DNA of 24,000 bases from Candidatus Aquidulcis sp. (GTDB lineage Bacteria; Chloroflexota; Anaerolineae; UBA4142), in assembly GCA_020723345.1 (NCBI GenBank), contig DYJA01000022.1, positions 29,308-53,307 of the forward strand. Direction: 5' to 3'. A model generated the notes under the pieces. The model saw nothing but the letters and a program-made list of their open reading frames with translations. It was not told where the DNA came from and searched no databases. The translations under genes and the position numbers were made by a program. This document shows positions 1 through 24,000 of this stretch, piece after piece (the stretch's first letter is position 1; each line of letters begins with the position of its first letter).

Positions 1-1308
1 CTCGCCCACCTCTCCGCCGCGTGGCACGATTTTCCCTCGCGCAAACTCCGCGTCATCGGCGTCACGGGCACCGATGGCAAGACGACGACGTGCCGCCTCA
101 TCGCGTCCGTTCTCGAAAGCGCGAGGCACAGGGTTGGCGCGATTACGACGGTGAGCGCGACGATTGGCGATCAGGAGATTGACACGGGCTTGCACACGAC
201 GACGCCCGACGCGCCCGACGTGCAACGCTATCTCGCGCAGATGGTTGACGCGGGCGCGGAGTACGCCGTGATCGAAGCGACCTCCGAAGGACTCGCGCAG
301 CGCCGCCTCGACGCGGTGGAATTCGACGTCGCGGTCGTCACGAACATTACGCACGAGCATTTGTATTTTCACAAGACCTGGGAAAATTATCGCGACGCGA
401 AAGCAATGCTCTTTCGCGCGCTCGCCACATCGTACCGCAAACCGCGCACCGCGAAGGTCGCCGTGCTGAACGCGGACGATCACGCGCGGGGGGTGTTTGA
501 TTACTTGCGCGCGATTGAGACAGACGAACAGATCATCTATTCGACCAACGACCAACGACGAATGACCGAAGACAATCAATGCTCAGCGGTCAGCGGTCGG
601 CGGTCAGCGGTCAGCATTTTCGCGCGCGCCATCCAACACTCCTCACATGGACTCCGCTTCACCGCCGTCACACCGCACGGCGAATTGGAAATCGAATCGC
701 CGCTGATTGGGCGGTACAATGTGGCGAACATTCTCGCGGCAATCGGCGCGGGGATGGCGCGGCGTGTGCCGTTCGACGCGTTGCGCGACGGGATCGCGCG
801 CGTGCGCGGCGTGAGCGGGCGGATGGAAGTTTTGCAATCCTTCGACTCCGCTCAGGATGCGCCGTTCACGGCGATTGTCGATTTCGCGCACACGCCGAAC
901 GCACTGCAGAACGCGCTGGAAACCGCGCGCGAACTGGCGCACAATCGCGTCATCGTCGTGTTCGGTTGCGCGGGCTTGCGCGACGTTCAAAAACGCGCGC
1001 TGATGGGCGAAATCGCGGGGAAACTTGCGGACAAGATCGTGGTGACCGCCGAAGACCCGCGCACTGAATCGCTTGACGCGATCAACGCGCAAATCGTGGA
1101 GGGCTTGGAACGCGCGGGGCGGCGCGCGCGCGAGGATTATTTCATCGTCGATGATCGCGCGGAGGCAATCGCATTTGCAATTCAAATGGCGCGCGCGGGC
1201 GACGTCGTCATCGTTTGCGGCAAAGGACACGAGCGGTCGATGTGTTTCGGGACGACGGAAATTCCGTGGAGCGATCAAGACGCGGTGCGTGCTGCGCTCA
1301 ATCGATGA
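1..1308 (+). CDS. murE: MurE-type Mur ligase (UDP-N-acetylmuramoyl-tripeptide synthetase), 5'-truncated by the window edge
   Basis: Frame 1 is open from nt 1. Nt 52-93 translate to VIGVTGTDGKTTTC (Mur ligase P-loop). Later motifs TNITHEHLYFH, IGRYNVANILAA, DFAHTPNAL, VFGCAGLRDVQKR and TAEDPRTE fit the MurE middle and C-terminal domains. Stop TGA 1306-1308. The ORF-track start at 151 (GTG) is internal. Confidence 0.9.
   Translation, partial: LAHLSAAWHDFPSRKLRVIGVTGTDGKTTTCRLIASVLESARHRVGAITTVSATIGDQEIDTGLHTTTPDAPDVQRYLAQMVDAGAEYAVIEATSEGLAQRRLDAVEFDVAVVTNITHEHLYFHKTWENYRDAKAMLFRALATSYRKPRTAKVAVLNADDHARGVFDYLRAIETDEQIIYSTNDQRRMTEDNQCSAVSGRRSAVSIFARAIQHSSHGLRFTAVTPHGELEIESPLIGRYNVANILAAIGAGMARRVPFDALRDGIARVRGVSGRMEVLQSFDSAQDAPFTAIVDFAHTPNALQNALETARELAHNRVIVVFGCAGLRDVQKRALMGEIAGKLADKIVVTAEDPRTESLDAINAQIVEGLERAGRRAREDYFIVDDRAEAIAFAIQMARAGDVVIVCGKGHERSMCFGTTEIPWSDQDAVRAALNR
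542..618. repeat. 7-bp-periodic tandem array inside murE (11 units)
   Basis: Read directly: cgaccaa cgaccaa cgacgaa tgaccga agacaat caatgct cagcggt cagcggt cggcggt cagcggt cagcatt. It translates as STNDQRRMTEDNQCSAVSGRRSAVS, in a region where Mur ligases normally have a short loop. Confidence 0.85.
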
Positions 1309-2137: not shown

Positions 2138-5100
2138 TCATTTCACATTCTCCAACGCGTACTCAATCGCTTGCTCGCGCGACATGGTTCGTCCTTCCGC
2201 TTGTGCCGCGCTAAAAGTTGCTTCATCCAATTGCGCGCGCGCGATGGCGAAATAGTATTCGCGCTCGGCGGCATCGGCGGGCGTGTAGACACCCTCCCCG
2301 CGCGTTCCAAGCGCATCCACCGCGCCAAACAATCGCGCGGCGCGCGCGAATTGTTTTTCGGCAGTCGCGATAAACGCGAATCCTTCCAGAGCGCCAATAA
2401 TGATGGGGGCACGCGCGGCTTGGCGCGCGAGCGCGAGACTTTCCGTCAACAATTTGCGCGCGCGCGTCACATCGCCGAGCCGCAACACGGTTACGCCGAG
2501 GTTGCCCAGCACAATTGCATTTCCGAGCAACGTGCCCAAGTCCTGTGCAATCGCGAGCGCTTCCTCGTAATATATTTTTGCGCGCGGATAATCCTGTTCC
2601 ACGCGCGCGATTTCGCCCAGGGTAAGCAACGCATTGCTGGCAAGGAGGCGATCCTTGCGCGCGCGAAAAAACTGCAATGCTTCTTCGTTTTGCCGACGCG
2701 CGGTTGCGTAATCGCCGTCGCGAAAATGGACGCGCGCGATGTCGCGATACAACACCATTGCCCAGCGTTGGTCGCCCAATTTGCTGAACGCGGCGTGGCT
2801 CGCTTCAAACGCGGCGCGCGCGGCTTGGCGATTACCTTCGTTCAAAAAGCGATGCCCCCGATAATGCAGAATCGTCGCGCTCATCCATTCATCGCCCAGC
2901 ACTTGCGCGATTGCCCAACTTTCATCTTCGAGAGCTTGCGAGCGTTCAGGTTGCTCTGTCCGGATGACCAAACTCAATTCTGCCAAACCCATCGCGAGTT
3001 GGCGTTGACCGGGCGCGCCGCACGCGCGCGCGATCTCAATCGTTTCTTCCAGATAGGGACGCGCCGCTTTGCCCGATTCGACATTCTCCGCCAACGCCGC
3101 GAGCGTGAATAACGCGCGCGCGCGCGCCAATGTTTTTTCTGCGGCTTCCGGTCGCGCCAAAAGTTTCTGAATCCGCGCGTACGCCTCGCTCGAATACGCC
3201 CGCAAATCCCAGAACAAGCGCAATGCGCCGACGATCTGCAGTCCTTTTTGCGCGCGACCTGGACTCTGCGACCAATCCAGCGCGGCGCGCAAATTATCGT
3301 GTTCGACATCAAGCCGATCCAACCATTCGAATTGTTCCGCGCCCATCAACCTAGGTTCGACGTTTTCCGCAAACGCGACAAAAAAATCGAGATGCCGATC
3401 GCGAATCGTTTCCACTTCGCCCGATTCCAACAAACGATCCCGCGCGTACTGCCGAATCGTCTCCATCAGCCGATAGCGCGTTTCCGCATCGTGCGGTTCG
3501 ACGATCACGAGCGACTTGTCCACCAATCGCGCAAGCAAGTCAAGCACATCGTCCGCGCAAACGGGATCGCAACCGCACACGGCTTGCGCGGCATCGAGCG
3601 TCCATCCGCCCGCGAACACGGACAGGCGGCGTAACAACACGCGCTCTTCTTCGGTCAACAGACTAAAACTCCAATCAATCAGCGCGCGCAATGTTTGCTG
3701 ACGCGGCAGCGCGGTGCGACTGCCACCCGTGAGCAAACGAAAACGGTCGTCCAACCGCGCCGCGATCTGTTCGACGCTCAGCGTTTTCACGCGCACCGCC
3801 GCGAGTTCGAGCGCGAGCGGAATCCCGTCCAGCCGGTGACAGATTTGCGCGACCGCCGTCGCGTTCGCATTCGTCACCGCGAAATTGGACTGGACCGCGA
3901 GCGCGCGATCAATGAACAGACGCACGGCTTCGTACTGCGATAGACTTGCCAAGTCTTGGAGACTTTGCAAGTCTGCGGGCGGCAACGCGAGCGACGGGAC
4001 GCGATACGCCGTTTCGCCGACGATGCCCAACGCTTCGCGGCTGCTTGCGAGAATTTTCAACTGGGGACACGCGCGCAAAAGCGCGTCGGCAAGTTGCGCG
4101 CACGCGTCAATCAAGTGTTCGCAGTTGTCGAGGATGAGCAACAGGTCTTTCGCGCGAAGATAATTTGTGAGGACGGTCGTGATTGGCGTGTTCGGTTGTT
4201 CTTCCAATTTGAACACAGCGGCGATTGTCTGAGGTACGAGCATGGGATCGCTGAGCGCGGCGAGTTCAACCCACCACACGCCATTCTTGAATTGATTCGC
4301 ATTCGCGAGTTCCGTCGCCAGTTGAATCGCGAGCCGCGTCTTGCCCGCGCCGCCCGCGCCCGTCAACGTGAGCAAGCGCGTCTTCCCAACGAGTTCCTTC
4401 AGTTCCCTCAGTTCCCTTGCTCTTCCGATGAAACTCGTCAGCGGCGCGGGCACATTCGTGAACAGCGCCTCGCGCGCTTTGCCGCCCGTCAACGCGGCTT
4501 CGATCTGATCGCGCAGCGCGAGCGTCTCTTTGGATGGCTCGACGCCCAGTTCGTCGCGCAGTTTCTTTTCGCACGCGTCGTACTGCTTCAGCGCGCCGAT
4601 GCGGTCACCGGTTGCCGCGAGGCAAAAGATGATGTGCTGGTACGCTTTCTCGTTCGCGGGATCGCTCGCCAACGCTTTCCGCGCGAATTCAACCGCGCGC
4701 GCGTACTCGCTTTTCGCGCGATGGTGTTGCGCGAGTCGCAAGAGCGCGTCGAGATACAGCGCGCGCAAGCGTTCGCGTTCGGGGAGAATCCAATCGTCGT
4801 AGAAGTCGGAGAGCAAGTCATCATGATAATCTTCGATTTTCGATTTCAGATTTTCGATTTCCAAATCGACAATCGGCAATCGCAAATCGAAAATCTGGCG
4901 CGCGTCGACCCAAAGGGGAAAATCAGGATTGAGTTGTACGGTCTCGCGATCTGCGATGACCACATCGTCGCCAAGTTCTTTGCGGATGGCGGCAAGCGCG
5001 GTGCGGAGCGAGTGACGCGCCTGCTCGTCGGGGACATCGCCCCAGAGGAGCGCGGCAAGTTTTTCGCGAGGATGCGCTTCGGGGAAAAGCGCGAGGTAAG

Positions 5101-5209
5101 CCAGCAGCGATTCGACTTTGCGCGTGGCAAGACGGATCGAACCGGAATCGCTTTCGATCTGAAATGCGCCGAGCAAGTGAAGACGATAGCGCGGAGATTT
5201 GCGCGCCAT
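2138..5209 (-). CDS. SARP/AfsR-family regulator: wHTH + BTAD + NB-ARC (STAND ATPase) + TPR repeats
   Basis: 1023 aa. N-terminal OmpR-type wHTH (LLGAFQIE...LLAYLAL...LWGD). BTAD helices (ERERLRALYLDALLRLA...GALKQYDACEKKLRDELGVEPS). P-loop LTGAGGAGKTRLA, Walker B LLILDNCEH and GIPLALELAA. The C-terminal ~450 aa are TPR-like. AAGGGG SD lies before ATG 5209, and a consensus-like promoter lies upstream. Confidence 0.9.
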   Translation of the reverse strand: MARKSPRYRLHLLGAFQIESDSGSIRLATRKVESLLAYLALFPEAHPREKLAALLWGDVPDEQARHSLRTALAAIRKELGDDVVIADRETVQLNPDFPLWVDARQIFDLRLPIVDLEIENLKSKIEDYHDDLLSDFYDDWILPERERLRALYLDALLRLAQHHRAKSEYARAVEFARKALASDPANEKAYQHIIFCLAATGDRIGALKQYDACEKKLRDELGVEPSKETLALRDQIEAALTGGKAREALFTNVPAPLTSFIGRARELRELKELVGKTRLLTLTGAGGAGKTRLAIQLATELANANQFKNGVWWVELAALSDPMLVPQTIAAVFKLEEQPNTPITTVLTNYLRAKDLLLILDNCEHLIDACAQLADALLRACPQLKILASSREALGIVGETAYRVPSLALPPADLQSLQDLASLSQYEAVRLFIDRALAVQSNFAVTNANATAVAQICHRLDGIPLALELAAVRVKTLSVEQIAARLDDRFRLLTGGSRTALPRQQTLRALIDWSFSLLTEEERVLLRRLSVFAGGWTLDAAQAVCGCDPVCADDVLDLLARLVDKSLVIVEPHDAETRYRLMETIRQYARDRLLESGEVETIRDRHLDFFVAFAENVEPRLMGAEQFEWLDRLDVEHDNLRAALDWSQSPGRAQKGLQIVGALRLFWDLRAYSSEAYARIQKLLARPEAAEKTLARARALFTLAALAENVESGKAARPYLEETIEIARACGAPGQRQLAMGLAELSLVIRTEQPERSQALEDESWAIAQVLGDEWMSATILHYRGHRFLNEGNRQAARAAFEASHAAFSKLGDQRWAMVLYRDIARVHFRDGDYATARRQNEEALQFFRARKDRLLASNALLTLGEIARVEQDYPRAKIYYEEALAIAQDLGTLLGNAIVLGNLGVTVLRLGDVTRARKLLTESLALARQAARAPIIIGALEGFAFIATAEKQFARAARLFGAVDALGTRGEGVYTPADAAEREYYFAIARAQLDEATFSAAQAEGRTMSREQAIEYALENVK
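4831..4893. repeat. palindromic heptamer array (9 units, 63 bp) inside the SARP gene
   Basis: cttcgat tttcgat ttcagat tttcgat ttccaaa tcgacaa tcggcaa tcgcaaa tcgaaaa. The left units are the reverse complement of the right units, and about 24 of 30 positions pair around the centre at 4861/4862. It encodes FDLRLPIVDLEIENLKSKIE between the wHTH and BTAD domains. Confidence 0.85.
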
Positions 5210-5349: not shown

Positions 5350-7122
5350 ATGCCAATTCACATTTTGCCCGACGACCTCGCCTCGAAAATCGCGGCGGGC
5401 GAAGTGATCGAACGCCCCGCGTCGGTCGTCAAAGAGTTGCTCGAAAATTCGATTGATGCGGGCGCGCGCGAAATCAAGATCGAAATTCGCGGCGGCGGTC
5501 AGCGCTTGATCCGCGTCGCGGACGACGGCGGCGGCATTCCCACAGCCGAGGTCGCGACCGCGTTCGCGCGTCACGCGACGAGCAAACTCAATTCGGTGGA
5601 CGACTTGTTCAAGCTCCAGACGCTCGGTTTTCGCGGTGAAGCGCTGCCGTCGATTGCGGCGGTCTCGCGCGTCACACTCATCACCCGCGCGCGCGGCGAA
5701 GCATCGGGGACGCAGATGCGCGTCGACGGCGGCAAGATCGTCGAACAGCGCGCGCAAGGCGCGCCACAAGGTACGATTGTCACCGTCGAAGATTTGTTTC
5801 GCCACGTGCCCGCGCGCTTGAAATTCCTCAAGACTCCGGCAACCGAAGCCGGACGCATCGCCGATCTGATCAACGCGTACGCGCTTGCGTATCCCGCGCT
5901 GCGGTTCTCACTCGTGAATGACGATCGCTTGCTGTTTCAATCGCCCGGCACCGGGAAAATGTTCGACGTATTGGTGAAGGTGTTTGGGATCGAAATCGCG
6001 AATCAGATGTTGGAGGTTGGAAATTGGAAATTGGAAAATACGGCGGAAGGCGCGTCCAGTGTTCAACCTCTAACTTTTAACCTCCAACCTCCAACCTCCA
6101 ACATCCAGGTTTCCGGTTTCATTTCTCCGCCCGCCGTCAATCGCTCGTCGCGCAAATACATGCTCTTTTTCGTCAACCATCGCTGGGTGCAAGATCGCAC
6201 GTTGCAGCACGCGGTCATCGAAGCGTACCACACCGCGCTGATGGTCGGACGCGCGCCGATTGTCGCGCTCGACATCGCGCTGCCGCCGGACACGGTGGAC
6301 GTGAACGTGCATCCGACAAAAAGCGAAGTGCGTTTCCGCGACACGAGCGCGGTTTTTCGCGCGGTGCAGCACACCGCCCGCGCCGCGCTCACCGCGCACG
6401 CGCCGATTCCGACGATCAGCGCTTCCGCGCCCCCTTCGACTATCGCTCAGGGCGCGCCGCGCCGCGCCGAAACCCAACTCGCGATTGACTTGCACCGCCC
6501 AATTCCAACTTCCAATCTCCAATCTCCTGATCGCCCGATTGCCCAATTGCCCATGTTGCGCGTCCTCGGTCAAATCCTTTCGACGTACATCATTGCCGAA
6601 GGACCCGACGGCTTGTATTTGATCGATCAACATTCGGCGCACGAGCGCGTGCTGTACGAGCAATTGATGGCGGAGCGCGCCAGCGCGCAAGTCGTCGCGC
6701 AAGAATTGATCGATCCGCTCGCGCTGCAACTCACGCCCGCGCAGCAAGCCGCGCTCGAAACGCATCGCGACGCGCTCGCGTCGGTCGGCTTCAAGTTCGA
6801 GGATTTCGGCGCGCAGACGATTTTGCTGCGCGCGGTACCGGCGGTGATGAAAAAGAGCGATCCGCGCGACGCGCTCGCGCACATTCTCGACGAGTTGGAA
6901 CAAGGCGAAACGCCGCTCGAAAAATCGGCAGAAGCGCGTTTGATTTCGAGCGTATGCAAAAGCATCGCGGTGAAAGGCGGACAAGTGCTATCGCTCGAAG
7001 AAATGCGCGAACTCGTGCGGCGCTTGGAGCAGACGACCGCGCCGCGGACTTGTCCGCACGGCAGACCGACGATGATTCAATTGAACATCGGACAATTGGA
7101 AAGAGAGTTCGGCAGAAAGTAA
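5350..7122 (+). CDS. mutL: DNA mismatch repair protein MutL
   Basis: MPIHILPDDLASKIAAGEVIERPASVVKELLENSIDAGA (GHKL ATPase N-terminus), DDGGGI, GFRGEAL, VNHRWV, VDVNVHPTKSEVRF. The C-terminal dimerisation/endonuclease region has LYLIDQHSAHERVLYE and CPHGRP. The ORF-track start 5164 is an upstream extension without homology. Confidence 0.93.
   Translation: MPIHILPDDLASKIAAGEVIERPASVVKELLENSIDAGAREIKIEIRGGGQRLIRVADDGGGIPTAEVATAFARHATSKLNSVDDLFKLQTLGFRGEALPSIAAVSRVTLITRARGEASGTQMRVDGGKIVEQRAQGAPQGTIVTVEDLFRHVPARLKFLKTPATEAGRIADLINAYALAYPALRFSLVNDDRLLFQSPGTGKMFDVLVKVFGIEIANQMLEVGNWKLENTAEGASSVQPLTFNLQPPTSNIQVSGFISPPAVNRSSRKYMLFFVNHRWVQDRTLQHAVIEAYHTALMVGRAPIVALDIALPPDTVDVNVHPTKSEVRFRDTSAVFRAVQHTARAALTAHAPIPTISASAPPSTIAQGAPRRAETQLAIDLHRPIPTSNLQSPDRPIAQLPMLRVLGQILSTYIIAEGPDGLYLIDQHSAHERVLYEQLMAERASAQVVAQELIDPLALQLTPAQQAALETHRDALASVGFKFEDFGAQTILLRAVPAVMKKSDPRDALAHILDELEQGETPLEKSAEARLISSVCKSIAVKGGQVLSLEEMRELVRRLEQTTAPRTCPHGRPTMIQLNIGQLEREFGRK
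6006..6106. repeat. ~100-bp heptamer-built palindrome inside mutL
   Basis: Left arm gttggag gttggaa attggaa attggaa. Right arm aacctct aactttt aacctcc aacctcc aacctcc aacatcc. There is a perfect 16-bp basal stem, 6006-6021 / 6090-6105, with further imperfect pairing inward. It encodes GNWKLENTAEGASSVQPLTFNLQPPTSNIQ. Confidence 0.9.
6500..6555. repeat. heptamer array (8 units) in the MutL inter-domain linker
   Basis: caattcc aacttcc aatctcc aatctcc tgatcgc ccgattg cccaatt gcccatg. It encodes PIPTSNLQSPDRPIAQLPM. Confidence 0.8.
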
Positions 7123-8390: not shown

Positions 8391-10091
8391 TTACTCCGTT
8401 TCCCGCTGGATAATGCGCTGCAAAATCGCCAGCGTCGTCGCGTACGTCGGATCCATGCCAAAGTACGACGGATGCACCGCGCCGAGATTTTTGCCTTTGC
8501 TGTACGGCGTGTCCGACGCATAGTGCAGGAAACCGAAATCGAAATCGCTCTGATACAACCGGACGATCTCGTTCACCGGAAAACGTTTAGGGAAAATCAT
8601 TTCGTAGATTGCCGAAAGGTACGGTCCCGCCTCCATTTCGATGTCGGTATATCCTTCGCGATAAAACAATTCCATGAATTTTTCGTTTTGCAGGAACGTT
8701 CCCTTGACGGTAATCGCTTTTTGATTATCGAGCACCGAGCCGTACGTCAGATACGGCTCGACCGCGCGCGCGGTAAAACAGTTGTTGAACAGGTACGTGT
8801 TCTGCGAATGTTCGTCGTAGACGACGTTCGGAATGATCACATCGCCGACGCGTCCGTTCAGCGTCGCCGATTTGCCCAGCGAATAGAAACCTTTGATCTG
8901 ATCCATGTTGCGCGCGACTTCGGAGAGAATTTGGTACGCGGCGAGCCCGAGCGGATAGTCGATGTTGAAAATGATCGCGCGGCTCGCGCGCAAGCGCGCC
9001 AAGCGTTCGCGCGGCAGGCGCGGATCGAGCCGCTCCGGGATCAGCCGGTCGAGTTCGATGATCTGCGCGTCCACGTCCAAGTAGCGTTCGCTCGAAAAAT
9101 GCGTCAGCCCGACTTCGCGTTCGGCGCGCGCTTTCTCATCCGCCGCGGACGCGTTTTCGGGATCGGCGCAGTATTTTTTCAGGACGTAGTACAAGAAATT
9201 CTCTTTGCGGCTTTTCACCGCTTCGGCTTGAATGGCTTGATACTCGCGCGTCAAATTCTCGTGCCGAATATCGTGAATGTACTGGATCAATTCACGTTCG
9301 TGCGCGTGCGCGTAACCCGAAATCAGGTTCGCCAGACTGTGCGTGTTGCTCGAAATGAAATAGACCGGGCGACCGTCGAGCAAGCGCGCCGCATCTCGCT
9401 CGATATTGTTCCACCAATGCCGCGTCGCCTTGCGATAATCCAGGAGCGATCCGGCGAGCAGGCGCAGCGCGAATTGTTTCGTCGTCGCGCCAATCATTTG
9501 CAGATTGGCGACCAGGTGGCTGCCCCAAATATTTTCCAGCGTTCCCAGATCGGACATGCTGAGGCGCAGGATGCGCGCCAACTCCTCGCGCGCGGCGGAA
9601 TCGAGCGGCACATCGCCGGGAATGTGGGCGATGCCGCCCGCGTGCACGATCAGATCGCGCAGCTTGTTCCATTCAATTTCGTACGCGGTCAGAATCGGGA
9701 TCAAGTCGTCGATGTCGGACGCGCTCGCGATGAACGCAGCCAGCGTCGCGTCGCCGTCGAAAAACATTTTGCGCCGCCGTCCCGCCGCGCTGACGGTTTG
9801 CCAATGCTCGACGTCCGGATAGCTCGCCTTGTCGAACACTTCGTCCGACTGTCCCAACAAAATATGCTGCACCTGCTTGATGCAGTCGGGCAAACGCAGC
9901 GTGGCGTAGACGAACGCGGCGAGGTCGGGATATTCCGCGCGCGCGTTCAAGTGCAGCGACGAATCCATTTGCGTGTGCGTTTCGATCAACGACTTGATTT
10001 GGATTTCGCCGCTCGACCGCAAAAGCGAATAGTACGTCCGCATGTATAATTCAATATCTTCATTCGCCGATGAGGGAATGCCGCGATCCAT
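8391..10091 (-). CDS. 566-aa protein: uncharacterised ~370-aa N-terminal region + C-terminal PNP/UDP-1 (nucleoside phosphorylase / AMP nucleosidase-like) domain
   Basis: Clean ORF with a GGAGGA SD before ATG 10091. The C-terminal motifs IFNIDYPLGLAA, LGKSATLNGRVGDVIIPN, DIEMEAGPYL and HYASDTPY follow the order and spacing of the phosphorylase-superfamily fold (by-eye call). The N-terminal part matches nothing I recognise. Confidence 0.75.
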   Translation of the reverse strand: MDRGIPSSANEDIELYMRTYYSLLRSSGEIQIKSLIETHTQMDSSLHLNARAEYPDLAAFVYATLRLPDCIKQVQHILLGQSDEVFDKASYPDVEHWQTVSAAGRRRKMFFDGDATLAAFIASASDIDDLIPILTAYEIEWNKLRDLIVHAGGIAHIPGDVPLDSAAREELARILRLSMSDLGTLENIWGSHLVANLQMIGATTKQFALRLLAGSLLDYRKATRHWWNNIERDAARLLDGRPVYFISSNTHSLANLISGYAHAHERELIQYIHDIRHENLTREYQAIQAEAVKSRKENFLYYVLKKYCADPENASAADEKARAEREVGLTHFSSERYLDVDAQIIELDRLIPERLDPRLPRERLARLRASRAIIFNIDYPLGLAAYQILSEVARNMDQIKGFYSLGKSATLNGRVGDVIIPNVVYDEHSQNTYLFNNCFTARAVEPYLTYGSVLDNQKAITVKGTFLQNEKFMELFYREGYTDIEMEAGPYLSAIYEMIFPKRFPVNEIVRLYQSDFDFGFLHYASDTPYSKGKNLGAVHPSYFGMDPTYATTLAILQRIIQRETE

Positions 10092-10101
10092 AAATCCTCC
10101 G

Positions 10102-10812
10102 TCAAATCTTCCCTTTCAAAATTCCATACAACCACGTCGGCTCGCCGGTAACGCGCGTGACGTAATACCATACCAGCGCGAACGCTTCACGCGCGGTGTA
10201 CTGCGCGCGCAGATTCGCGCGCGCGTACGTCGGACTGTCGCTCGCGCCGGAGCCATACGCTTCGATTCCCACGTCGCGCGCGATGATTTCGGCGCGATAG
10301 AGGTGAAACGGATCACTGACGATGATCGCGCTGCGCCAGCCGCGCGCGTCCATCAACCTTTTCGCGTTCGTCAGACTCGCTTCCGTCGAATGCGATTGGT
10401 CTTCGAGCACGAGCGCGTCTGCCGGGACGCCTGCGCCAGTAGCAATGCGCCGCATCACTTCGGCTTCGCTCGGCGGATTGCCGCCGACGCCGCCGCACAA
10501 AATCAGATGCGCCGCATAACCCGCTTGGTACAACGCGATCGCGTGCTGCGTCCGCGCCAACAACGACGGCGAGGGACGCTCGTTTGCCCACACCGCCGAA
10601 CCCAGTACGATGATCGCGTCGGCGCGGCGCGCGCGGTCGATTTGCGAACGCGCGTCGACGCGCGCGTACAAGATTGCCAGCACTGCGAGAACAAGCGCAA
10701 ACGCGCCCCACGCGAGCATCACCCATTTCCGCTTACGCCTACCGTTCACTGTTGACTGTTCACCGTTCACTGTTGACCGTTCACCGTTCACGGTTGACTG
10801 TTCACCGTTCAC
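10102..10812 (-). CDS. DUF218 / YdcF-ElyC-SanA family membrane-anchored protein
   Basis: RRKRKW + TM (VMLAWGAFALVLAVLAILY), then ADAIIVLGSAV, LILCGGVG, SHSTEASL and IIVSDPFHLYRA (DUF218 pattern). The first ~25 codons of the ORF-track model (GTG 10812) are the heptamer array, so the true start may be ATG 10719. The stop is 10 nt from the next gene, so the two probably form an operon. Confidence 0.8.
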   Translation of the reverse strand: MNGEQSTVNGERSTVNGEQSTVNGRRKRKWVMLAWGAFALVLAVLAILYARVDARSQIDRARRADAIIVLGSAVWANERPSPSLLARTQHAIALYQAGYAAHLILCGGVGGNPPSEAEVMRRIATGAGVPADALVLEDQSHSTEASLTNAKRLMDARGWRSAIIVSDPFHLYRAEIIARDVGIEAYGSGASDSPTYARANLRAQYTAREAFALVWYYVTRVTGEPTWLYGILKGKI

Positions 10813-10849
10813 CGTTCACGGTTGACTGTTCACCGTTCACGGTTCACTG
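10738..10849. repeat. 16-unit direct heptamer array (TTCACCG / TTGACTG variants)
   Basis: cctaccg ttcactg ttgactg ttcaccg ttcactg ttgaccg ttcaccg ttcacgg ttgactg ttcaccg ttcaccg ttcacgg ttgactg ttcaccg ttcacgg ttcactg. All units have one orientation, with no spacers. On the minus strand it reads MNGEQSTVNGERSTVNGEQSTVNG. Confidence 0.92.
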
Positions 10850-10859
10850 CCTTTGCCCC

Positions 10860-10888
10860 ATCATACACCGGGCTTGACTGGGTGTCAA
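10860..10888 (-). promoter_or_regulatory. near-consensus promoter firing into the heptamer array and the DUF218 operon
   Basis: The minus strand reads TTGACA (complement of 10883-10888), 17 nt (cccagtcaagcccggtg), TATGAT (complement of 10860-10865). Confidence 0.65.
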
Positions 10889-10892
10889 ACGA

Positions 10893-10922
10893 TTTGCGCG
10901 ATTTTGAGGATTGTGCTATACT
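10893..10922 (+). promoter_or_regulatory. candidate nusA operon promoter
   Basis: TTTGCG (10893-10898), 18 nt, TGcTATACT (-10 hexamer 10917-10922). It sits back-to-back with the divergent promoter. Confidence 0.5.
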
Positions 10923-10953
10923 TGCCAGCGTAAACCTCCGCACGACCTTCTTC

Positions 10954-10985
10954 GAAAAGTGGGCATCCCCCACTTTTCTTGTTAT
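10954..10985 (+). terminator. terminator-like hairpin in the nusA leader (possible attenuator)
   Basis: 10-bp stem GAAAAGTGGG (10954-10963) / CCCACTTTTC (10969-10978), 5-nt loop, followed by TTGTTAT. It lies between the candidate promoter and the nusA start. Confidence 0.4.
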
Positions 10986-10996
10986 CAGGCGGAGTG

Positions 10997-11031
10997 AATT
11001 TGAGATTGGAGATTTGAGATTTCCAATCTCC
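10997..11031. repeat. heptamer hairpin element abutting the nusA SD
   Basis: aatttga gattgga gatttga gatttcc aatctcc. GGAGATT (11008-11014) pairs with AATCTCC (11025-11031). The SD AGAAGAGGA follows directly. Confidence 0.8.
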
Positions 11032-11046
11032 AGAAGAGGACCGCAC

Positions 11047-12588
<1,542 letters not shown>

Positions 12589-13439: not shown

Positions 13440-15656
13440 ATGCCTGAGACGAAACCCGTGAGCAAGCGGGATGAATCGAAAAAAACAAAACCGAGTGAAA
13501 CCAAAACGACTGCCGCACCGGCGCACAAGCCCACGACGCCAAAGCCCGCGCATCCCGAACGCGCGGCGTCGTCTAAACCGATGCCCAAACCAGTCGCACC
13601 TTCGCCAGTGAAACCCGGCGCGCCAACCAGACCGACTCAACATCCCAGTTCGCACGGCGCGTCCGCACACAGACCGACTTCCCGTCCAGTGGCTCTCAGC
13701 GCGAAACCCGGCGCGCCGATGACACGACCAGCGGCACCGCGTCCCGGTGCACCTAGACACGGTATGCCCGTCGCCAAACCCGGCGCGGTTCCGGTGCGAC
13801 CGGCGACTCGCCCAGGTACGCCGCCGCGTCCCGCCGGGGTAGTTGCGCCCAGACCGGCGCCGGTTGCGCCGCCACCGCCGCCACCCAAGCCGCCCGTCGA
13901 ATTGCCGGACAATTTGACGGTGCGCGATCTCGCCGCCACGCTCAAAGTTGGACCGATCGACATCATCAAAAAATTGATGGCGAGCGGCATCATGGCGAAC
14001 ATCAATCAGCCGATTGATTTCGACACCGCCGCGCTCGTCGCGGGCGAACTCGGTTTTGAAGTGATCGAAAAAAAGCCGGAGATCGTCGAGCCGGAAGTTT
14101 CGACGCTGACGAGCATTCCAAAGAAACACGAGTACACGACAGCCGAACTCGCCAATCTCGTACTGCGTCCGCCGGTCGTCACCGTGATGGGACACGTCGA
14201 TCACGGCAAGACCTCGATCCTCGACGCGATCCGGCACGCCGACGTCGCGGGCGGCGAAGCCGGAGGCATCACGCAACACATCGGCGCGTACCAGATTTTG
14301 CACGATGCGAAACGCATCACCTTTCTCGATACGCCCGGGCACGAAGCGTTCACCGAAATGCGCGCGCGCGGCGCGCAAGCGACCGATATCGCGATCATCG
14401 TCATCGCGGCGGACGACGGCGTGATGCCGCAGACGCGCGAAGCGATTGATCACGCGCGCGCGGCGAAAGTACCGATCATCATCGCGCTGAACAAGATTGA
14501 CAAAGCGAACGCGAACCCCGAACGCGTCAAGCAGCAACTTTCGGACATGGGGCTGGCGGTGTACGGTGGCTCGGATGAAGTGACCGTCGTCCCGATGTCG
14601 GCGAAGCAAAAAATCGGCGTGGACGATCTGCTGGAAAATATTCTGCTCGTCTCGGAACTTGCCGATCTGCGCGCGAATCCGAAAAAGCCGGCGCGCGGCA
14701 TCGTCATCGAATCGAAACTCGACAAACAGCAAGGTCCAATGGCAACGCTGCTCGTGCAAGACGGTATGCTCCACGTCGGCGAGTTTGTTTTGATCGGCGG
14801 CGTGTGGGGCAAAATCCGCGCGATGTTCAACGATCACGGCGTCGCGGTCAAAGACGCGGGTCCCGCAGATCCGGTCGCGGTGACTGGTCTGTCCGACGTG
14901 CCGCCCGCGGGAGAAAAATTCGTCGTGCTGGAAGAGGAACGCGACGCGCGCAATCGCGCGGAAGCGCGCGCGCTGGCGAAACGCCAAGCGGAACAAAAAT
15001 CGACGCGCGCGGTTTCGCTCAACGATTTGTTCGCGCAATTCCAAGCCGGCAACGTCAAAGAACTCAATCTCATCGTCAAAGCCGACGTGCAAGGTTCGTT
15101 GGAACCGATTGTTTCGTCGCTCGAGAAACTGGGCTATGAAAAAATCAAAGTCAAGATCATCCATCAAGGCATCGGCACGATCACGCGGTCGGACGTGATG
15201 CTCGCGATGGCGTCACAAGGTATCGTGATCGGTTTTAGCGTCGGCGTCGAAACGGCGGCGGAATCGCTCGCCGAGAGCGAAGGGATTGACATTCGGCAGT
15301 ATAATATCATTTATAAATTGATCGAGGATATCGACAAGGCGCTCAAAGGGATGCTGGAGCCGGTGTTCGAAGATCGGCTGATCGGGCGCGGTCAAGTGCT
15401 GCAACTCTTCCGCGTGAAAAAGAGCGTCGTGGCGGGCTTGCGGATCACGCAGGGCAAAGCGGTCCGCAGCGGCACCGTGCGCGTGATGCGCGGCGCGAAC
15501 GAAGTGTTCAAGGGCACGATTGCCGCGCTCAAGCGTTTCCAGGACGACGTGCGCGAAGTCGCGGAAGGATACGAATGTGGCTTGTCGCTGGAGAAATTCA
15601 CCGATTTTCACGACGGCGATCAAGTCGAGTTTTATCAGAAAGTGAAAGTGAGTTGA
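13440..15656 (+). CDS. infB: translation initiation factor IF-2
   Basis: SD GGAAAGGAGAG before ATG 13440. Pro/Ala-rich N-terminus. GTPase motifs [22 protein letters not shown] and NKIDK. C-terminal domains follow to the stop at 15656. Confidence 0.97.
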
Positions 15657-15660
15657 GTAA

Positions 15661-16023
15661 ATGGCTGGTTACCGCGCCGCGCGCGCGAGCCAAAGAATCC
15701 AACAAGAGATCAGCACGCTGTTCGAGCGCGAGGTGAGCGACCCGCGCCTAGCGGACGTCAACGTGACGCACGTCGAGGTGAGCGGCGATTTGCGCGTCGC
15801 CAAGATTTTCGTCGCGCCGATCACCGGCGACGACGACGCGACGCGCGCGATGCTGGACGCGCTCGACCGCGCGACCGGTTTCTTCCGGCGTCGCATCGCG
15901 CAGAGTTTGGATTTGCGCATCGCGCCGGAGATCCGTTTTCTGCTGGATCGCTCCATCGAAAAAGGCGAACGCTTTCTCCGCGCGCTGGAGCAAGTGCGCG
16001 CGTCGGAACAGAGAGACGAATAA
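15661..16023 (+). CDS. rbfA: ribosome-binding factor A
   Basis: 120 aa. RIQQEISTLFEREVSDPRL...VTHVEVSGDLRVAKIFV fits RbfA, and the position after infB is conserved. Confidence 0.95.
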   Translation: MAGYRAARASQRIQQEISTLFEREVSDPRLADVNVTHVEVSGDLRVAKIFVAPITGDDDATRAMLDALDRATGFFRRRIAQSLDLRIAPEIRFLLDRSIEKGERFLRALEQVRASEQRDE

Positions 16024-16031
16024 CGTAAAAT

Positions 16032-17006
16032 ATGGGAACGACACTCACATTCGAGCAAGCCGTCGAACTGTTTCGACGCCACAATCAAATTTTCGTCGCG
16101 GCGCACATCATGCCGGACGGTGACTGCATCGGCTCCGCGCTCGGCTTGACGTGGGCGCTGCGAAAAATCGGCAAGACGGTGACGGTGACGTGTCCCGATC
16201 ACGTTTCGAACACGTTCAAGTTTTTGCCGGGCTTTGAAGAGCTCGCGCCCAAGACGCCGACCGGCGAAGAGTTCCTGGTTTTCGTGGACGGCAGCTCGGC
16301 GGATCGCTTTGGCGCGGCGTACGATCCGGCGAAATTCAACGGCAGACCGGTGCTCGTCATCGATCATCACGTCACCAACGATAATTTCGCGCCGCTCAAT
16401 TTCGTGGATCGGCGCGTCGCGTCCACCGCCGAAATCATTTTTCGTTTCGTCAACGCGTTCGGCGTATCGTTCGACCGCAACCTCGCGCAGTGTTTGCTGA
16501 CCGGCATCGTCACCGACACGCTCGGCTTTCGCACCGCGAACACGACGGTCGACACGCTCAAGACCGTGACCGCGTTGATGGAAGCGGGCGGCTCGATTCC
16601 CGAAATCATCGAACATTCCTTCAACCAAGTTCCGCTGGCGAGTTTGCGATTGCGCGGCAAGATTTTCAGCAGCGCGATGCTCGACGGCGTGATTCTGTGG
16701 GCGGAGGTGCCGTTCAAGTTGCAGCGCGAACTGGGGTTGAACGGCAACGGCACCGGCGGCATCATCAATCAATTGCTCAGCGTCGAGGACGCGAAGATCG
16801 CCGCGCTGTTCACCGAAAAAGAAAACGGCAAAATCGACATTGGCTTGCGTTCGCGCGTCGGCTACGATGTCGCGGCAATCGCCGCGCGGCTCGGCGGCGG
16901 CGGACACAAACAGGCGTCGGGCGCGTTGCTGGACGGACCGCTGGCGGCGGCGCGGGAACGCGTGCTTGCCGAGATCAAAAAGGCGATCAGTCAATCGGGC
17001 AACTAG
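16032..17006 (+). CDS. nrnA: DHH/DHHA1 phosphoesterase (NrnA-like oligoribonuclease / pAp phosphatase)
   Basis: HIMPDGDCIGSALGL, LVIDHHVTN, GIVTDTLGF and GGGGHKQASGA motifs. The last 7 codons (ISQSGN*) are supplied by the downstream repeat element. Confidence 0.88.
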   Translation: MGTTLTFEQAVELFRRHNQIFVAAHIMPDGDCIGSALGLTWALRKIGKTVTVTCPDHVSNTFKFLPGFEELAPKTPTGEEFLVFVDGSSADRFGAAYDPAKFNGRPVLVIDHHVTNDNFAPLNFVDRRVASTAEIIFRFVNAFGVSFDRNLAQCLLTGIVTDTLGFRTANTTVDTLKTVTALMEAGGSIPEIIEHSFNQVPLASLRLRGKIFSSAMLDGVILWAEVPFKLQRELGLNGNGTGGIINQLLSVEDAKIAALFTEKENGKIDIGLRSRVGYDVAAIAARLGGGGHKQASGALLDGPLAAARERVLAEIKKAISQSGN

Positions 17007-17066
17007 GCAATCAGTCAATCAGGCGATCAGGCGACCGATTGCCCGATTGACTGATTGACCAATCAC
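16983..17066. repeat. heptamer-word palindromic element spanning the nrnA stop and the truB upstream region
   Basis: Perfect 15-bp inverted repeat CAGTCAATCGGGCAA (16988-17002) / TTGCCCGATTGACTG (17039-17053), extendable by about 4 bp. The text is built of GATTGAC / CAATCAG / GGCGATC words with 7-nt phasing. Confidence 0.88.
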
Positions 17067-21080: not shown

Positions 21081-21147
21081 GAGTATTCAGTGTTCAGTAT
21101 TCAGTGTTCGGTATCCAGTGTTCAACAACCCGGACACTGAATACTGG
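21081..21147. repeat. heptamer array + inverted arm hairpin between archease and rtcB
   Basis: gagtatt cagtgtt cagtatt cagtgtt cggtatc cagtgtt ... The 13-bp perfect stem CAGTATTCAGTGT (21095-21107) / ACACTGAATACTG (21134-21146) is extendable to about 17 bp. The rtcB SD GGAGG (21146-21150) touches the 3' arm. Confidence 0.88.
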
Positions 21148-21155
21148 AGGTTGCG

Positions 21156-22607
21156 ATGATCACCAAGCAAAACTTTGAACGCATAACGGATTACATCTGG
21201 CAAGTGCCGCAGAATTTTCGCGGCGATATGCGCGCGCCCGCGCGCCTGTACGCAAGCGAAGAACTGTTGGAAGACGCGCTGCAAGATCAATCGGTCGAGC
21301 AGTTGATCAACACCGCGACGCTGCCCGGTGTCGTCAAGTACGCGATCTCAATGCCGGACATTCATCAGGGCTATGGTTTTCCGATTGGCGGCGTCGTCGC
21401 GACGCAAGCGCCGGACGGCGTGATTTCGCCGGGCGGAGTCGGGTACGATATCAATTGCGGCGTTCGTTTGCTCGCGTCGCATCTCCGCGCGGAAGAAATC
21501 GTGCGGCAGATCAAAGACCTCGCGACCGCGCTGTACAAAAACTGTCCGAGCGGCGTCGGTTCGGAAGGAAGCGTCCCGCTCAACGCGAAACAACTCGACG
21601 ATGTGCTAGAGCAAGGCAGCGAGTGGGCAGTGAAAAATGGCTACGCGCGCCGCAAAGATTTGCAGCGCACCGAGGAATTCGGCAAGATGCCCGGCGCGGA
21701 CGCGGGCGCGGTTTCCCAACGCGCGAAAGCGCGCGGGCGCGATCAACTCGGCACGCTCGGCGCGGGGAATCATTTCATCGAAGTGGATCACGTCGCGCAA
21801 GTGTACGACGCGCAAATCGCGGAGCGGCTCGGCTTGTTCTCCGAGCAAATCGTCGTGCAGATTCACTGCGGTTCGCGCGGGTTGGGGCATCAAGTCTGTA
21901 CCGATTACGTGAACGATTTTCAGCGCGCGGTGCGCGAGTACCAGATCGAACTGCCCGACCGCGAACTCGTCTGTGCGCCGCTCAACTCGCCGGAAGGGCA
22001 AACATATTTTCAAGCGATGGCGGCGTCCGCGAATTTCGCGTTTGCGAATCGGCAAGTTCTCGCGTTCCACATCCGGCGGTCGTTTGAAGAAGTACTCGCC
22101 GGCATCGTCAAGGATTTCGATCTGTTCCAGATTTATGACATCGCGCACAACATGGCAAAGGTCGAGGAGCACGACATCGAAGGCAAGCGCGTCAAGGTGT
22201 GCGTGCATCGCAAAGGCGCGACGCGCGCGTTCGGTCCGGGGTCAGACGTGCTGCCGGACGACTTGCGCGACATCGGTCAGCCGGTGCTGATTCCCGGATC
22301 GATGGGCACCGCGTCGTACGTGCTGATCGGCACCGCCGCGTCCATGGCTGAAACGTTTGGCTCGACGTGCCACGGCGCGGGACGCGTGATGAGTCGCGCG
22401 AAAGCGAAAAAGGAAGTGCGCGGCGAAAAACTGCGCGAAGAACTCGCGGCGCGCGGCATCGTCGTGCGCGCCGGATCGATGCCGGGACTCGCGGAGGAAG
22501 CGCCGCAGGCGTACAAGGACGTATCGCGCGTCGTCGAGGTGGTGCATCGCGCGGGCATCGGGCGCAGGGTCGCGCGGTTGGAGCCGGTGGCGGTAATCAA
22601 GGGATGA
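21156..22607 (+). CDS. rtcB: RNA 3'-phosphate/2',3'-cyclic phosphate ligase RtcB
   Basis: 483 aa with [54 protein letters not shown] and CHGAGR motifs. Confidence 0.97.
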
Positions 22608-22644
22608 CGCGGCAATGAGCCAACTCGCTGTTGATTCATGGTAT

Positions 22645-22673
22645 TTGCCTTCGGAGAAATTCGACCGTATAAT
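22645..22673 (+). promoter_or_regulatory. promoter at the start of the AT-rich islet
   Basis: TTGCCT (22645-22650), 17 nt, TATAAT (22668-22673). Confidence 0.55.
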
Positions 22674-22687
22674 CTGCACATAGTCTA

Positions 22688-22751
22688 TTATGCAGAAAAA
22701 ATTCCGCATAACTACCCCAGCGGGGTCTTATGCGGAATCGTTTCCGCATAA
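22688..22751. promoter_or_regulatory. two tandem 8-N8-8 palindromes (TTATGCRG-N8-CCGCATAA), operator- or attenuator-like
   Basis: Half-sites TTATGCAG 22688-22695, CCGCATAA 22704-22711, TTATGCGG 22728-22735 and CCGCATAA 22744-22751. The centres are 40 bp apart. The middle pair extends to an 11-bp inverted repeat (ATTCCGCATAA / TTATGCGGAAT) enclosing a CCCCAGCGGGG mini-hairpin. Confidence 0.6.
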
Positions 22752-22786
22752 AACGTAGTTGGGCAGGTTCTTCCAAAGGAGTAGTC

Positions 22787-23443
22787 ATGATTCATACTCA
22801 ATCAATGAAAACCTTCTGGGCATCTTGGCTCTTATGGATATTTGCCAACACGATAGGTGCGGCAATAGGATTGGCAATAACTCTTGTTGCCATTTACGTT
22901 ATTGGATTTGATAACGACAGCACCATACCGCTTGTATACGTTATTGGATTTAATTACGACAGTAGTACCATATCGCCTGTTTTAGTAGTCGCTACTACCA
23001 TTTGCATTGGGGCTTCCCAATGGTTCATAGTCCGTAAATACGCAACTCGCGCTGTCTTGTGGATAGTGGCGAGCGTATTTGGAGTCTTTCTTGGGGCTAT
23101 CGCCATTGGACTCGTAGCGTGGATTGCTAATATAACCATTGGTGTTGATAGAATGTCAAAAGTAATGCAAGGTGCATTTTCTATGGCTGTGCCACTAACA
23201 CTGTATGGAGCATCAGTTGGCTTCACGCAATGGCTATTCCTTCGCAAACATACTATTCACGCAAATACAAACTGGTGGATCTTAGCCAGCGCCATCGGTG
23301 CCGCGTTGCTTGGGATTTTCATTGGCAATTGGATGGGTAATATTGCTGAACTAATTTTTATTTTGGTTGGAACAATTCCCGCCATAATAACGGGGTTCGT
23401 TTGGGCAATGCTCTTACAACAACCTCTAAGATCAGCACAGTAA
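22787..23443 (+). CDS. polytopic membrane protein with internal W-W-I-x-A-x3-G repeats, unknown function
   Basis: AAAGGAG SD 5 nt before ATG 22787. About 6 hydrophobic helices. A recurrent motif appears three times: SWLLWIFANTIGAAIG, AVLWIVASVFGVFLG and NWWILASAIGAALLG, the latter two preceded by QWFIVRK / QWLFLRK. AT-rich codon usage, unlike the rest of the window. Confidence 0.7.
   Translation: MIHTQSMKTFWASWLLWIFANTIGAAIGLAITLVAIYVIGFDNDSTIPLVYVIGFNYDSSTISPVLVVATTICIGASQWFIVRKYATRAVLWIVASVFGVFLGAIAIGLVAWIANITIGVDRMSKVMQGAFSMAVPLTLYGASVGFTQWLFLRKHTIHANTNWWILASAIGAALLGIFIGNWMGNIAELIFILVGTIPAIITGFVWAMLLQQPLRSAQ
22895..22981 (+). repeat. in-frame tandem duplication (42 + 45 bp) inside the membrane-protein gene
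   Basis: tacgttattggatttgataacgacag... (22895-22936) is repeated as tacgttattggatttaattacgacagtag... (22937-22981). The first 15 nt are identical. The encoded peptides are YVIGFDNDSTIPLV and YVIGFNYDSSTISPV. Confidence 0.8.
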
Positions 23444-23617
23444 AACATAAAACCTGCCCAACATAGCGTGCAGCGGACGGTTTGCCACGTACCGTTAAAG
23501 GGGGTTTATCTGCTCGAAGATATTGTTCCGTTTAGTGGCGTGGTTCTCGTGGCAAACCGCCGCTAACGCTTGCCGTTGGCTGGCTTAAGAGCAACAATCA
23601 ATGCAAATGGTAAATCA

Positions 23618-24000
23618 ATGAAACCGATTTTCACGATACACGCAGGCGAATATCTTGTAGCATCTCACCTTGAAGAAAAATTCAAAGGTCTGCAAATTTG
23701 GTTGCCTTCAAGCGATACAGGTATTGATTTACTCGTTACTAATCCAAAAGCAAGTTCCCAAAATTCAGTTCGTGCGGTTTCTTTGCAAGTAAAGTTTTCA
23801 AAAGACTTTTTGGGCAACAAAGGTGTAAGTTCTAAAATTAAGGCGGGCGGCTGGTGGACATTCAAGTATGACAAGATTGAGAAATCCCAAGCAGATTTAT
23901 GGGTTTTAGTTTTGTATCGTTTCAGCCATCGAGATTATGACTTCGTGATTATTGAGCCAAACAAATTACTTGAGCGATATAAAAGTTTAGGTAAAACTTC
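23618..24000 (+). CDS. PD-(D/E)xK nuclease-fold protein (DUF4365-like), 3'-truncated by the window edge; not in the ORF track
   Basis: My own translation from ATG 23618 is open to the window end: MKPIFTIHAGEYLVASHLEEKFKGLQIWLPSSDTGIDLLVTNPK...RAVSLQVKFSKDF...ADLWVLVLY...DFVIIEP. The pattern E...D-x-GIDLL...LQVK fits restriction-endonuclease-like cores. An in-frame stop lies at 23564-23566 upstream. Confidence 0.6.
   Translation, partial: MKPIFTIHAGEYLVASHLEEKFKGLQIWLPSSDTGIDLLVTNPKASSQNSVRAVSLQVKFSKDFLGNKGVSSKIKAGGWWTFKYDKIEKSQADLWVLVLYRFSHRDYDFVIIEPNKLLERYKSLGKT

Follow-up and report, generated by a model that had tools for sequence, protein, structure and literature searches.

A tandem heptamer array of probable slippage origin between an invariant promoter and the ydcF gene of a Candidatus Aquidulcis genome

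The window analysed here is a stretch of 24,000 nucleotides (nt) from Candidatus Aquidulcis sp. (Chloroflexota, Anaerolineae; contig DYJA01000022.1, positions 29,308 to 53,307), and the element in question is a tandem array of heptamers at the 5' end of its ydcF gene, which encodes a membrane-anchored DUF218/YdcF protein (PF02698). The array lies behind a promoter sequence that is invariant among related loci, is itself hypervariable among them, and is best read as one case of a clade-wide habit of making 7- and 8-nt tandem arrays, not as a conserved platform for a regulator. The features concerned are the following:

10894..10922, plus strand: predicted divergent promoter of nusA, TTGCGC-17-TATACT with a TG extension, kept in 13 loci
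10860..10888, minus strand: predicted promoter of ydcF (DUF218), an 11/12 match to consensus, unique in the window and invariant in 8 related loci
10741..10847, minus strand: heptamer array GTSAACN (as read on the mRNA strand), 15.3 copies, delimited by Tandem Repeats Finder (TRF) and by register
10813..10853, minus strand: units 1-5 plus 6 nt, 5' leader, with TGA codons in the ydcF frame at 10839-10837 and 10818-10816
10743..10812, minus strand: units 6-15, open in the ydcF frame, which would encode (NGEQSTV)n if translated
10723..10740, minus strand: RRKRKW codons, the basic patch before the membrane anchor
10102..10749, minus strand: ydcF / DUF218 gene (PF02698, E = 7.5e-29), preferred start GTG 10749; alternative starts are GTG 10812, 10791 or 10770, or the ATG at 10719 of the database call

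The ydcF promoter consists of TTGACA (10888-10883) and TATGAT (10865-10860) separated by 17 nt, and it was the sole match when both strands of the window were searched for TTGACA-N17-TATAAT with one mismatch allowed; the same search (at most one mismatch) found no match of any kind in 100 dinucleotide shuffles. It is followed by a G-rich discriminator, GGGGCAA, and the usual 7-nt distance would place the transcription start at A 10854/10853. Promoter and discriminator are invariant across 8 loci while the flanks diverge, so that hexamers of the predicted sigma-70 type, spaced at 17 +/- 1 nt, are conserved at orthologous positions, and the ydcF promoter is very probably real. The original prediction, of a near-consensus promoter leading straight into a repeat array, thus holds, the array beginning 13 nt past the -10 hexamer. 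The second, divergent promoter that it proposed is also present, with TTGCGC at 10894-10899, a 17-nt spacer and TGc-TATACT, the hexamer lying at 10917-10922; it faces the nusA-ylxR-infB-rbfA-DHH-truB operon, which lies divergently upstream of ydcF. The two promoters are back to back with their -35 hexamers 5 bp apart. An alignment of 8 related Anaerolineae loci shows that an intergenic core of ~125 bp, comprising a hairpin in the nusA leader, both promoters and the GGGG discriminator, is almost invariant, which is good evidence that both promoters are functional. The array was also suggested to space or insulate the two promoters. This idea fails on geometry, since the array is downstream of the ydcF promoter and outside the interval between the two.

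On the minus strand the array extends from 10847 to 10741 with a period of 7, 15.3 copies, 81% matches and a TRF score of 130, i.e., head-to-tail 7-nt units well above chance; higher-order periods are found at 21 (89%) and 28 (89%). When set in register it consists of 15 full GTSAACN units in the same orientation, followed by GT. Units 1-8 read GTGAACC, GTGAACG, GTGAACA, GTCAACC, GTGAACG, GTGAACG, GTGAACA and GTCAACC, and form two 28-nt blocks; units 9-15 read GTGAACG, GTGAACG, GTCAACA, GTGAACG, GTGAACA, GTCAACA and GTGAACG, of which 9-14 form two 21-nt blocks. The earlier description as sixteen identical heptamers over 112 nt was right about the common orientation, but its count is too high by one, a degenerate unit, and the units fall into five variants, whose differences are confined to positions 3 and 7. 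Of all arrays seen this one is the longest, and a search for an inverted partner, which 45% of the arrays in the clade have, found none for it.

Homologues assign the organism to uncultured Anaerolineae/Anaerolineales of the phylum Chloroflexota. Orthologous loci came from three sources: species-representative genomes, contigs with close homologues, and metagenome data scanned for the conserved promoter. The last of these gave just 4 loci, of which 2 equal L011, and no population-level copy-number series. Hypervariability sets in about 6 nt past the -10 hexamer of ydcF, after which the loci continue as follows:

Window: 15.3 heptamers
L060 and L061 (91% protein identity): 5 degenerate units
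L011, L067 and L068: 4 units; an ATG that starts on the 7th nt past the -10; encodes MTVNSERWTVNNRHKRR...
L062: about 3 units
L063: an insertion of unrelated sequence, a palindrome whose inverted arms are 13 bp each, then one unit
L064 and L066: a tandem 14-nt duplication, TATGATGGGGTAAA x2, which duplicates the ydcF -10; in L066 at about 2725-2760
L065 (protein P0016), 553-702: 18.8 octamers GTGRRACA at the position of the window array, with the same invariant promoter upstream

Unit number as well as unit sequence thus differ at an orthologous site behind an invariant promoter. Independent assemblies agree in their short arrays (L060 = L061; L011 = L067 = L068), and the octamers of L065 are an independent expansion with another unit length. 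The first in-frame start codon is found 7-34 nt after the -10 in six lineages, at 48 nt in the window, at 80 nt in L063 and at 119 nt in L065; in L011, L067 and L068 the ydcF mRNA is probably leaderless. In L062, at 9834, the ATG annotated for protein P0010, an NCBI homologue, and the conserved -10 hexamer overlap in the final two bases of the hexamer. This start is probably mis-called, and an in-frame GTG AAC 25 nt further on is more plausible.

Whether the array is a leader or an N-terminus had been left between two readings, and each of them applies in part. Three-frame translation shows that the first five units, besides their TGA codons in the ydcF frame, carry stops in the other two frames too, and they are therefore untranslated leader under any choice of start. 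The open frame of ydcF begins 45 nt past the -10 element, and units 6-15 are open in it because every third unit is GTC, giving TCA and not TGA. Upstream of RRKRKW the only in-frame start codons are the four GTGs at 10812, 10791, 10770 and 10749, all of them within the array. GTG 10812 indeed opens an array-derived open reading frame (ORF), of 236 aa, reading MNGEQSTVNGERSTVNGEQSTVNGRRKRKWVM..., and ATG 10719, the other start considered, is the start of the 205-aa database call P0001. Of 111 homologues, 70 are called with an N-terminal tail, typically ...RLxRLVKR, and in 66 of these 70 the 12 residues before the anchor carry a net charge of at least +2. The frame is open from the anchor up through the basic patch to TVN-like codons in all seven lineages; the unit that would put TGA in frame reads TCA in L060 and TGG in L011 and L062. 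An open frame alone is weak evidence, as it would coincide with the ydcF frame by chance in 1 of 3 cases. It is the family-wide conservation of a basic patch before the anchor that makes a GTG inside the array the probable start codon. The simplest candidate is GTG 10749, part of a GTG AAC that is also present in relatives, and this is the preferred start, with a 104-nt leader of units 1-14. A start at GTG 10812, as in one of the two original readings, or at 10791 or 10770 is possible and would add up to three NGEQSTV repeats, whereas the annotated ATG 10719 is a less likely start, and a rather doubtful one.

The original prediction further likened the array to a phased platform for an oligomeric RNA-binding regulator such as TRAP, and named absence or variability of the array in close relatives, with no effect on operon expression, as what would speak against it. 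Variability is what the related loci show, with 5, 4 or ~3 units, a palindrome, or 18.8 octamers in its place, so relatives with the same operon have not conserved the array. Nor are there any GAG or UAG triplets within 10741-10847, where the period is 7, and no TRAP-type oligomeric RNA-binding protein was found among the scanned ORFs of the window (24 kb of genome). CsrA binds GGA motifs, and the array contains none. Shine-Dalgarno (SD) cores (GGAG/GAGG/AGGA) occur 21 times in the array units of the clade against 15 +/- 3.7 expected, which is not significant. A scan of 10400-11400 against Rfam 15 (E <= 5) returned two chance-level matches (E = 1.6 and 4.9), far below gathering scores. The leader RNA is predicted to form a weak interrupted hairpin (z = -1.42), and since 17 of 200 shuffled sequences fold at least as well it is, in the folding model, no more structured than shuffled sequence. 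A sequence-specific RNA platform is unlikely because unit, period and copy number differ between sister lineages and the arrays of the clade, with 86 unrelated units, have no motif in common.

The array is not an isolated case. Counted by period from 4 to 12, the window holds 9 arrays at period 7 and 0-3 at any other. Per 100 kb, the Anaerolineae loci hold 29.7 period-7 arrays and the non-Chloroflexi loci retrieved by the same query 6.2; for period 8 the densities are 14.6 against 5.7, i.e., period 7 is in excess over other periods as well as over other taxa. The 240 kb taken from the closest relatives contain 141 arrays with a period of 7 or 8, which use 86 distinct canonical units. Of the 141, 45% are intergenic, in ~14% of the bases, a split that is approximate as the gene call was crude (longest ORF and codon log-odds) and over-extends N-termini; 45% have an inverted partner within 80 nt and would form long hairpins. 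An origin from REP/REPIN-like elements (repetitive extragenic palindromes) or other mobile elements was considered and rejected, the canonical units being too diverse. In L011 and L062 the nusA-infB-rbfA-truB-ribF operon has its spacers filled with arrays. Between infB and rbfA the spacer of the window measures 4 nt (15656-15661), whereas in L011 (5119-5194) and L062 (5118-5190) this spacer is about 90 nt and holds an inverted heptamer pair, ATGAAGG / TTCATCC, which indicates that arrays are gained or lost as whole spacers.

Arrays are also found inside genes of the window. The coding sequence of mutL contains the heptamer arrays TTGGAAA, CAACCTC and CCAATCT (6009-6107 and 6499-6553, plus strand), which are translated in two variable loops of MutL, with indels of 7-9 residues relative to the orthologues of L060 and L062. 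Two adjoining heptamer arrays lie in a Mur ligase ORF (542-615, plus strand), the L060 counterpart of which has arrays too (8654-8728). An inverted heptamer pair, TTCGATT / AAATCGA, at 4832-4895 within ORF 2138-5209 (minus strand), which encodes a BTAD/STAND/TPR regulator, separates the DNA-binding part at the N-terminus from the BTAD domain. Between genes, octamer arrays AGGCAATC and GACCGATT fill the spacer from the DHH/DHHA1 gene to truB (16981-17060), and an array of AGTATTC x6 lies just upstream of rtcB (21082-21124). The unit family of the window array recurs at an unrelated locus, L014 (17081-17190), where (CAGTGAA/CAGTCAA) x7 and an inverted partner form a hairpin between co-directional genes; the upstream ORF reads into this hairpin and ends ...SSEQSTVNS....

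The explanation that we favour, with a probability of about 0.6, is that the window array is a slippage-generated, variable-copy heptanucleotide repeat that spans the boundary between leader and N-terminus of ydcF. Three to five GTGAAC-like units would already have stood at the very 5' end of the gene, and these would have expanded in the window lineage only, by replication slippage and by duplication of blocks of 3 and 4 units. That the expansion is recent is suggested by the internal homogeneity of the array with its 21- and 28-nt blocks. It would have been nearly neutral, being tolerated because the leader is unconstrained and a cytoplasmic N-terminal tail needs only its basic patch. The block sizes fit such a course, with 28 nt in the promoter-proximal part, which could not be translated, and 21 nt, which keep the frame, in the in-frame part distal to the promoter. 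An mRNA with no leader or a short one, of the 7-34 nt seen in six lineages, would in this way have acquired a largely unstructured leader of 41 to 104 nt; with an in-array GTG start the RRKRKW patch would be retained ahead of the membrane anchor, and use of an upstream GTG would add a low-complexity N-terminal tail. Several points weigh against this explanation. Two independent long expansions at one site (window, 15 x 7 nt; L065, 18.8 x 8 nt) could mean that a long repeated leader is selected for in ydcF, and not just that the seed is prone to slippage. Support from SD pairing is weak for the in-frame GTGs and does not tell the candidate starts apart. A GGUGA about 10 nt ahead of them gives -7.8 kcal/mol, but -8 is attained at about 8% of random positions and -6 at about 21%, and the reference genes of the window range from none to -17.7, two of the reference coordinates being off by at least one base. 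For the open frame, the argument counts about two independent events and no more, one in the window/L060 lineage (TCA) and one in the L011/L062 lineage (TGG). Finally, both the transcription start and the start codon are deduced for an uncultured organism, and the copy number is taken from short-read metagenome assembly.

Concern about the assembly has little weight. It is true that tandem repeats are prone to mis-assembly and that the window protein is on one contig, but the array is 107 nt and below typical read length, its unit variants give it a non-periodic internal signature, and an independent assembly, L065, also has a long array at the same site, so that an artefact in copy number is hardly credible. 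It is also conceivable, if unlikely, that the whole array is untranslated leader, that translation starts at ATG 10719, and that the open frame of units 6-15 is a by-product of 21-nt block duplication. ATG 10719 was the choice of the gene caller, and 41 of the 111 homologues are called at the equivalent Met; given a GTC in every third unit, the open frame matches that of ydcF by a 1-in-3 chance; and anti-SD pairing before this ATG reaches -8.2 kcal/mol. That pairing, however, ends right beside the ATG, too close for normal spacing. The product would have no basic residue before its anchor, against the charge found in nearly all tailed homologues, and an in-frame basic patch lies upstream of the called ATG in 3 of the 3 short calls checked (window, L060 and L065). 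Furthermore, relatives hold the ydcF frame open by replacement of the in-frame TGA. A phase-variable switch, in which gain or loss of 7-nt units shifts the frame between the start codon and the body of ydcF, might be suspected as 7 is not divisible by 3, as the array overlaps the ORF, and as simple-sequence repeats at 5' ends drive phase variation in Haemophilus (PMC2651432, PMC12721329). It is very improbable nonetheless: GTG 10749, in the last unit, and ATG 10719 are always in frame, a full-length or near full-length protein is always possible and unit number does not switch it on or off, ydcF is a housekeeping-type envelope gene and not a surface antigen, and the short arrays are the same in independent assemblies.

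For a selected role the two long expansions at the same site in separate lineages are the best argument. The array could be a cis-regulatory element, either an mRNA platform for a cooperative single-strand binder, e.g., a cold-shock-domain protein or S1 with one protein per heptamer, or a copy-number tuning knob for ydcF and the DUF6909 gene behind it. Its position directly after the transcription start and before the start codon would suit such an element, its RNA is predicted to be essentially unstructured, and comparable proposals, called speculative by the papers themselves, exist for TAACTGA repeats (PMC4679880) and for the heptamers of Nostoc recF/recO (bioRxiv 10.1101/2022.06.06.494920). 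On the other side the element is not conserved, as unit sequence, unit length (7 vs 8) and copy number (0-19) differ among close relatives; the 86 units of the clade rule out one sequence-specific binder, and the array is without GAG/UAG triplets, GGA motifs or a significant enrichment of SD-like cores. We consider a selected element doubtful. About equally doubtful is a broader version, in which this family of Anaerolineae has a dedicated lineage-wide process that makes and keeps 7- and 8-nt arrays, with arrays in almost every intergenic spacer, often as hairpin-forming inverted pairs, and in the linkers of housekeeping proteins such as MutL, Mur ligase and BTAD/STAND proteins, and in which the long solo arrays of 5' leaders, those of the window and L065 among them, are copy-number-tunable leaders; a cold-shock-domain protein, or another general binder of single strands that covers about 7 nt, might then read them. 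Slippage within a near-neutral leader and tail remains the preferred explanation.

The remaining features of the neighbourhood lie outside the array:

8391..10091, minus strand: DUF6909 gene (PF21850, E = 4.5e-224), 10 nt downstream of ydcF
10954..10978, plus strand: 10-bp hairpin followed by TTGTTATC in the nusA leader, terminator- or attenuator-like, within the invariant core
10998..11022, plus strand: short heptamer array GAGATTK x3.6 in the nusA leader, variable in length among relatives, where there are inverted pairs

As ydcF and the DUF6909 gene are found together in L060, L061, L062 and L063 as well, the latter is, by gene order, a conserved operon partner of ydcF. The nusA leader (10923-11046, plus strand) is strongly conserved and runs from the promoter through AACCTCCGC and the 10-bp hairpin (GAAAAGTGGGCATCCCCCACTTTTC) with TTGTTATC to GCGGAGTG. 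Eleven Anaerolineae loci carry this hairpin without any change, two of them with a nusA that does not adjoin ydcF. Being invariant it shows no covariation, and it has no Rfam match; it is a candidate NusA-autoregulatory attenuator. At the far end of the window (22500-24000) the GC content falls from about 60% to 40-48%, and an ORF of 237 aa in this part (22730-23443) has no Pfam match. This end may be foreign or otherwise atypical DNA.

The 205-aa call for ydcF, and probably many similar short calls in the family, likely miss a non-ATG start and a basic tail, and repeat arrays at the 5' ends of genes mislead gene callers both ways, as the ATG of P0010 overlapping a -10 hexamer illustrates. The locus is in effect a natural experiment, with an invariant promoter followed in sister lineages by leaders of 0 to about 170 nt made of different repeats, and this series may be used to ask whether heptamer repeats affect expression, which is also at issue for the heptamers of cyanobacteria, Xanthomonas and Beggiatoa. 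The single array is an ordinary though extreme product of a lineage-wide habit; it is the habit, together with the series of variable leaders behind an invariant promoter, that makes the worthwhile part.

Among known systems the TRAP platform of the Bacillus trp leader, with 11 GAG/UAG triplets separated by 2-3-nt spacers, resembles the window array in outline only, as both consist of phased short motifs in a 5' leader. The window array differs from it in period (7 vs 5), in the lack of such triplets and in not being conserved among relatives. The short tandemly repeated repetitive (STRR) heptamers of the cyanobacteria Calothrix and Nostoc, with units CCCCAGT, TTGGTCA and CAACAGT, are like the arrays of the window clade dispersed tandem heptanucleotides without assigned function. 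Rotation turns the minority unit GTCAACA into CAACAGT, but STRRs belong to another phylum, GTGAACG, the majority unit, is not among the STRR units, and the match is probably coincidental. Direct TAACTGA repeats are known from marine Beggiatoaceae, cyanobacteria and Bacteroidetes (MacGregor, 2015; PMC4679880); an RNA-binding regulator has been proposed, not shown, for them, and a non-specific binder with a heptamer footprint has been speculated upon (PMC4679880). They share with the window array forward heptamers just upstream of or overlapping start codons, with stop codons when read forward; in the window the basic-patch codons follow 2 nt behind the array, within which the candidate GTG starts lie. 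On the other hand the TAACTGA system has one specific unit, usually in 2-6 copies, whereas the unit of the window is GTSAACN and the clade has many units. In Nostoc heptamers occur also upstream of recF and recO (bioRxiv 10.1101/2022.06.06.494920). Tandem repeats of Borg elements create intrinsically disordered protein regions (PMC9879509). Like those of the window clade they evolve fast and are tolerated in frame as low-complexity segments, here the MutL loops and possibly the ydcF tail, but Borg repeats are longer with unit lengths biased to multiples of 3, whereas the window unit is 7 nt and only its 21-nt blocks are in frame.

The literature searched holds no description of heptamer or octamer arrays in an Anaerolineae lineage, including arrays within essential genes, and for Anaerolineae or Chloroflexota at large only the (GATAGRA)n-derived satellites of Chloroflexus aurantiacus turned up (Subirana and Messeguer, 2019; PMC6749651). 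These are likewise scattered, heptamer-derived tandem arrays in the same phylum, but they represent one unit family in a single species, against the many unit families of the Anaerolineae lineage of the window. The closest likeness is with the heptameric repeats that are over-represented in bacterial intergenic regions, e.g., those of Xanthomonas (GGGAATC) and Nostoc (GGGGAYT) (Rehm et al., 2015, PMC4692102, citing Mrazek et al., 2007), which vary between close relatives, are in part inverted, and for which polymerase slippage has been proposed (PMC4692102, where the Calothrix STRR report is also mentioned). Common to these and to the window clade are 7-nt units, many arrays that are mostly intergenic, inverted pairs, and variation in length and sequence at the same locus. 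Xanthomonas and Nostoc, however, have one dominant G-rich, quadruplex-capable unit, as opposed to 86 units in 141 arrays without G-runs, and the arrays of the window clade are found in Chloroflexota and often inside coding regions. An Anaerolineae lineage with such arrays would extend the puzzle of why 7 nt is a favoured slippage unit. The window array thus has the defining features of the known heptameric simple-sequence repeats and differs from them in host lineage, unit diversity and frequency within genes.

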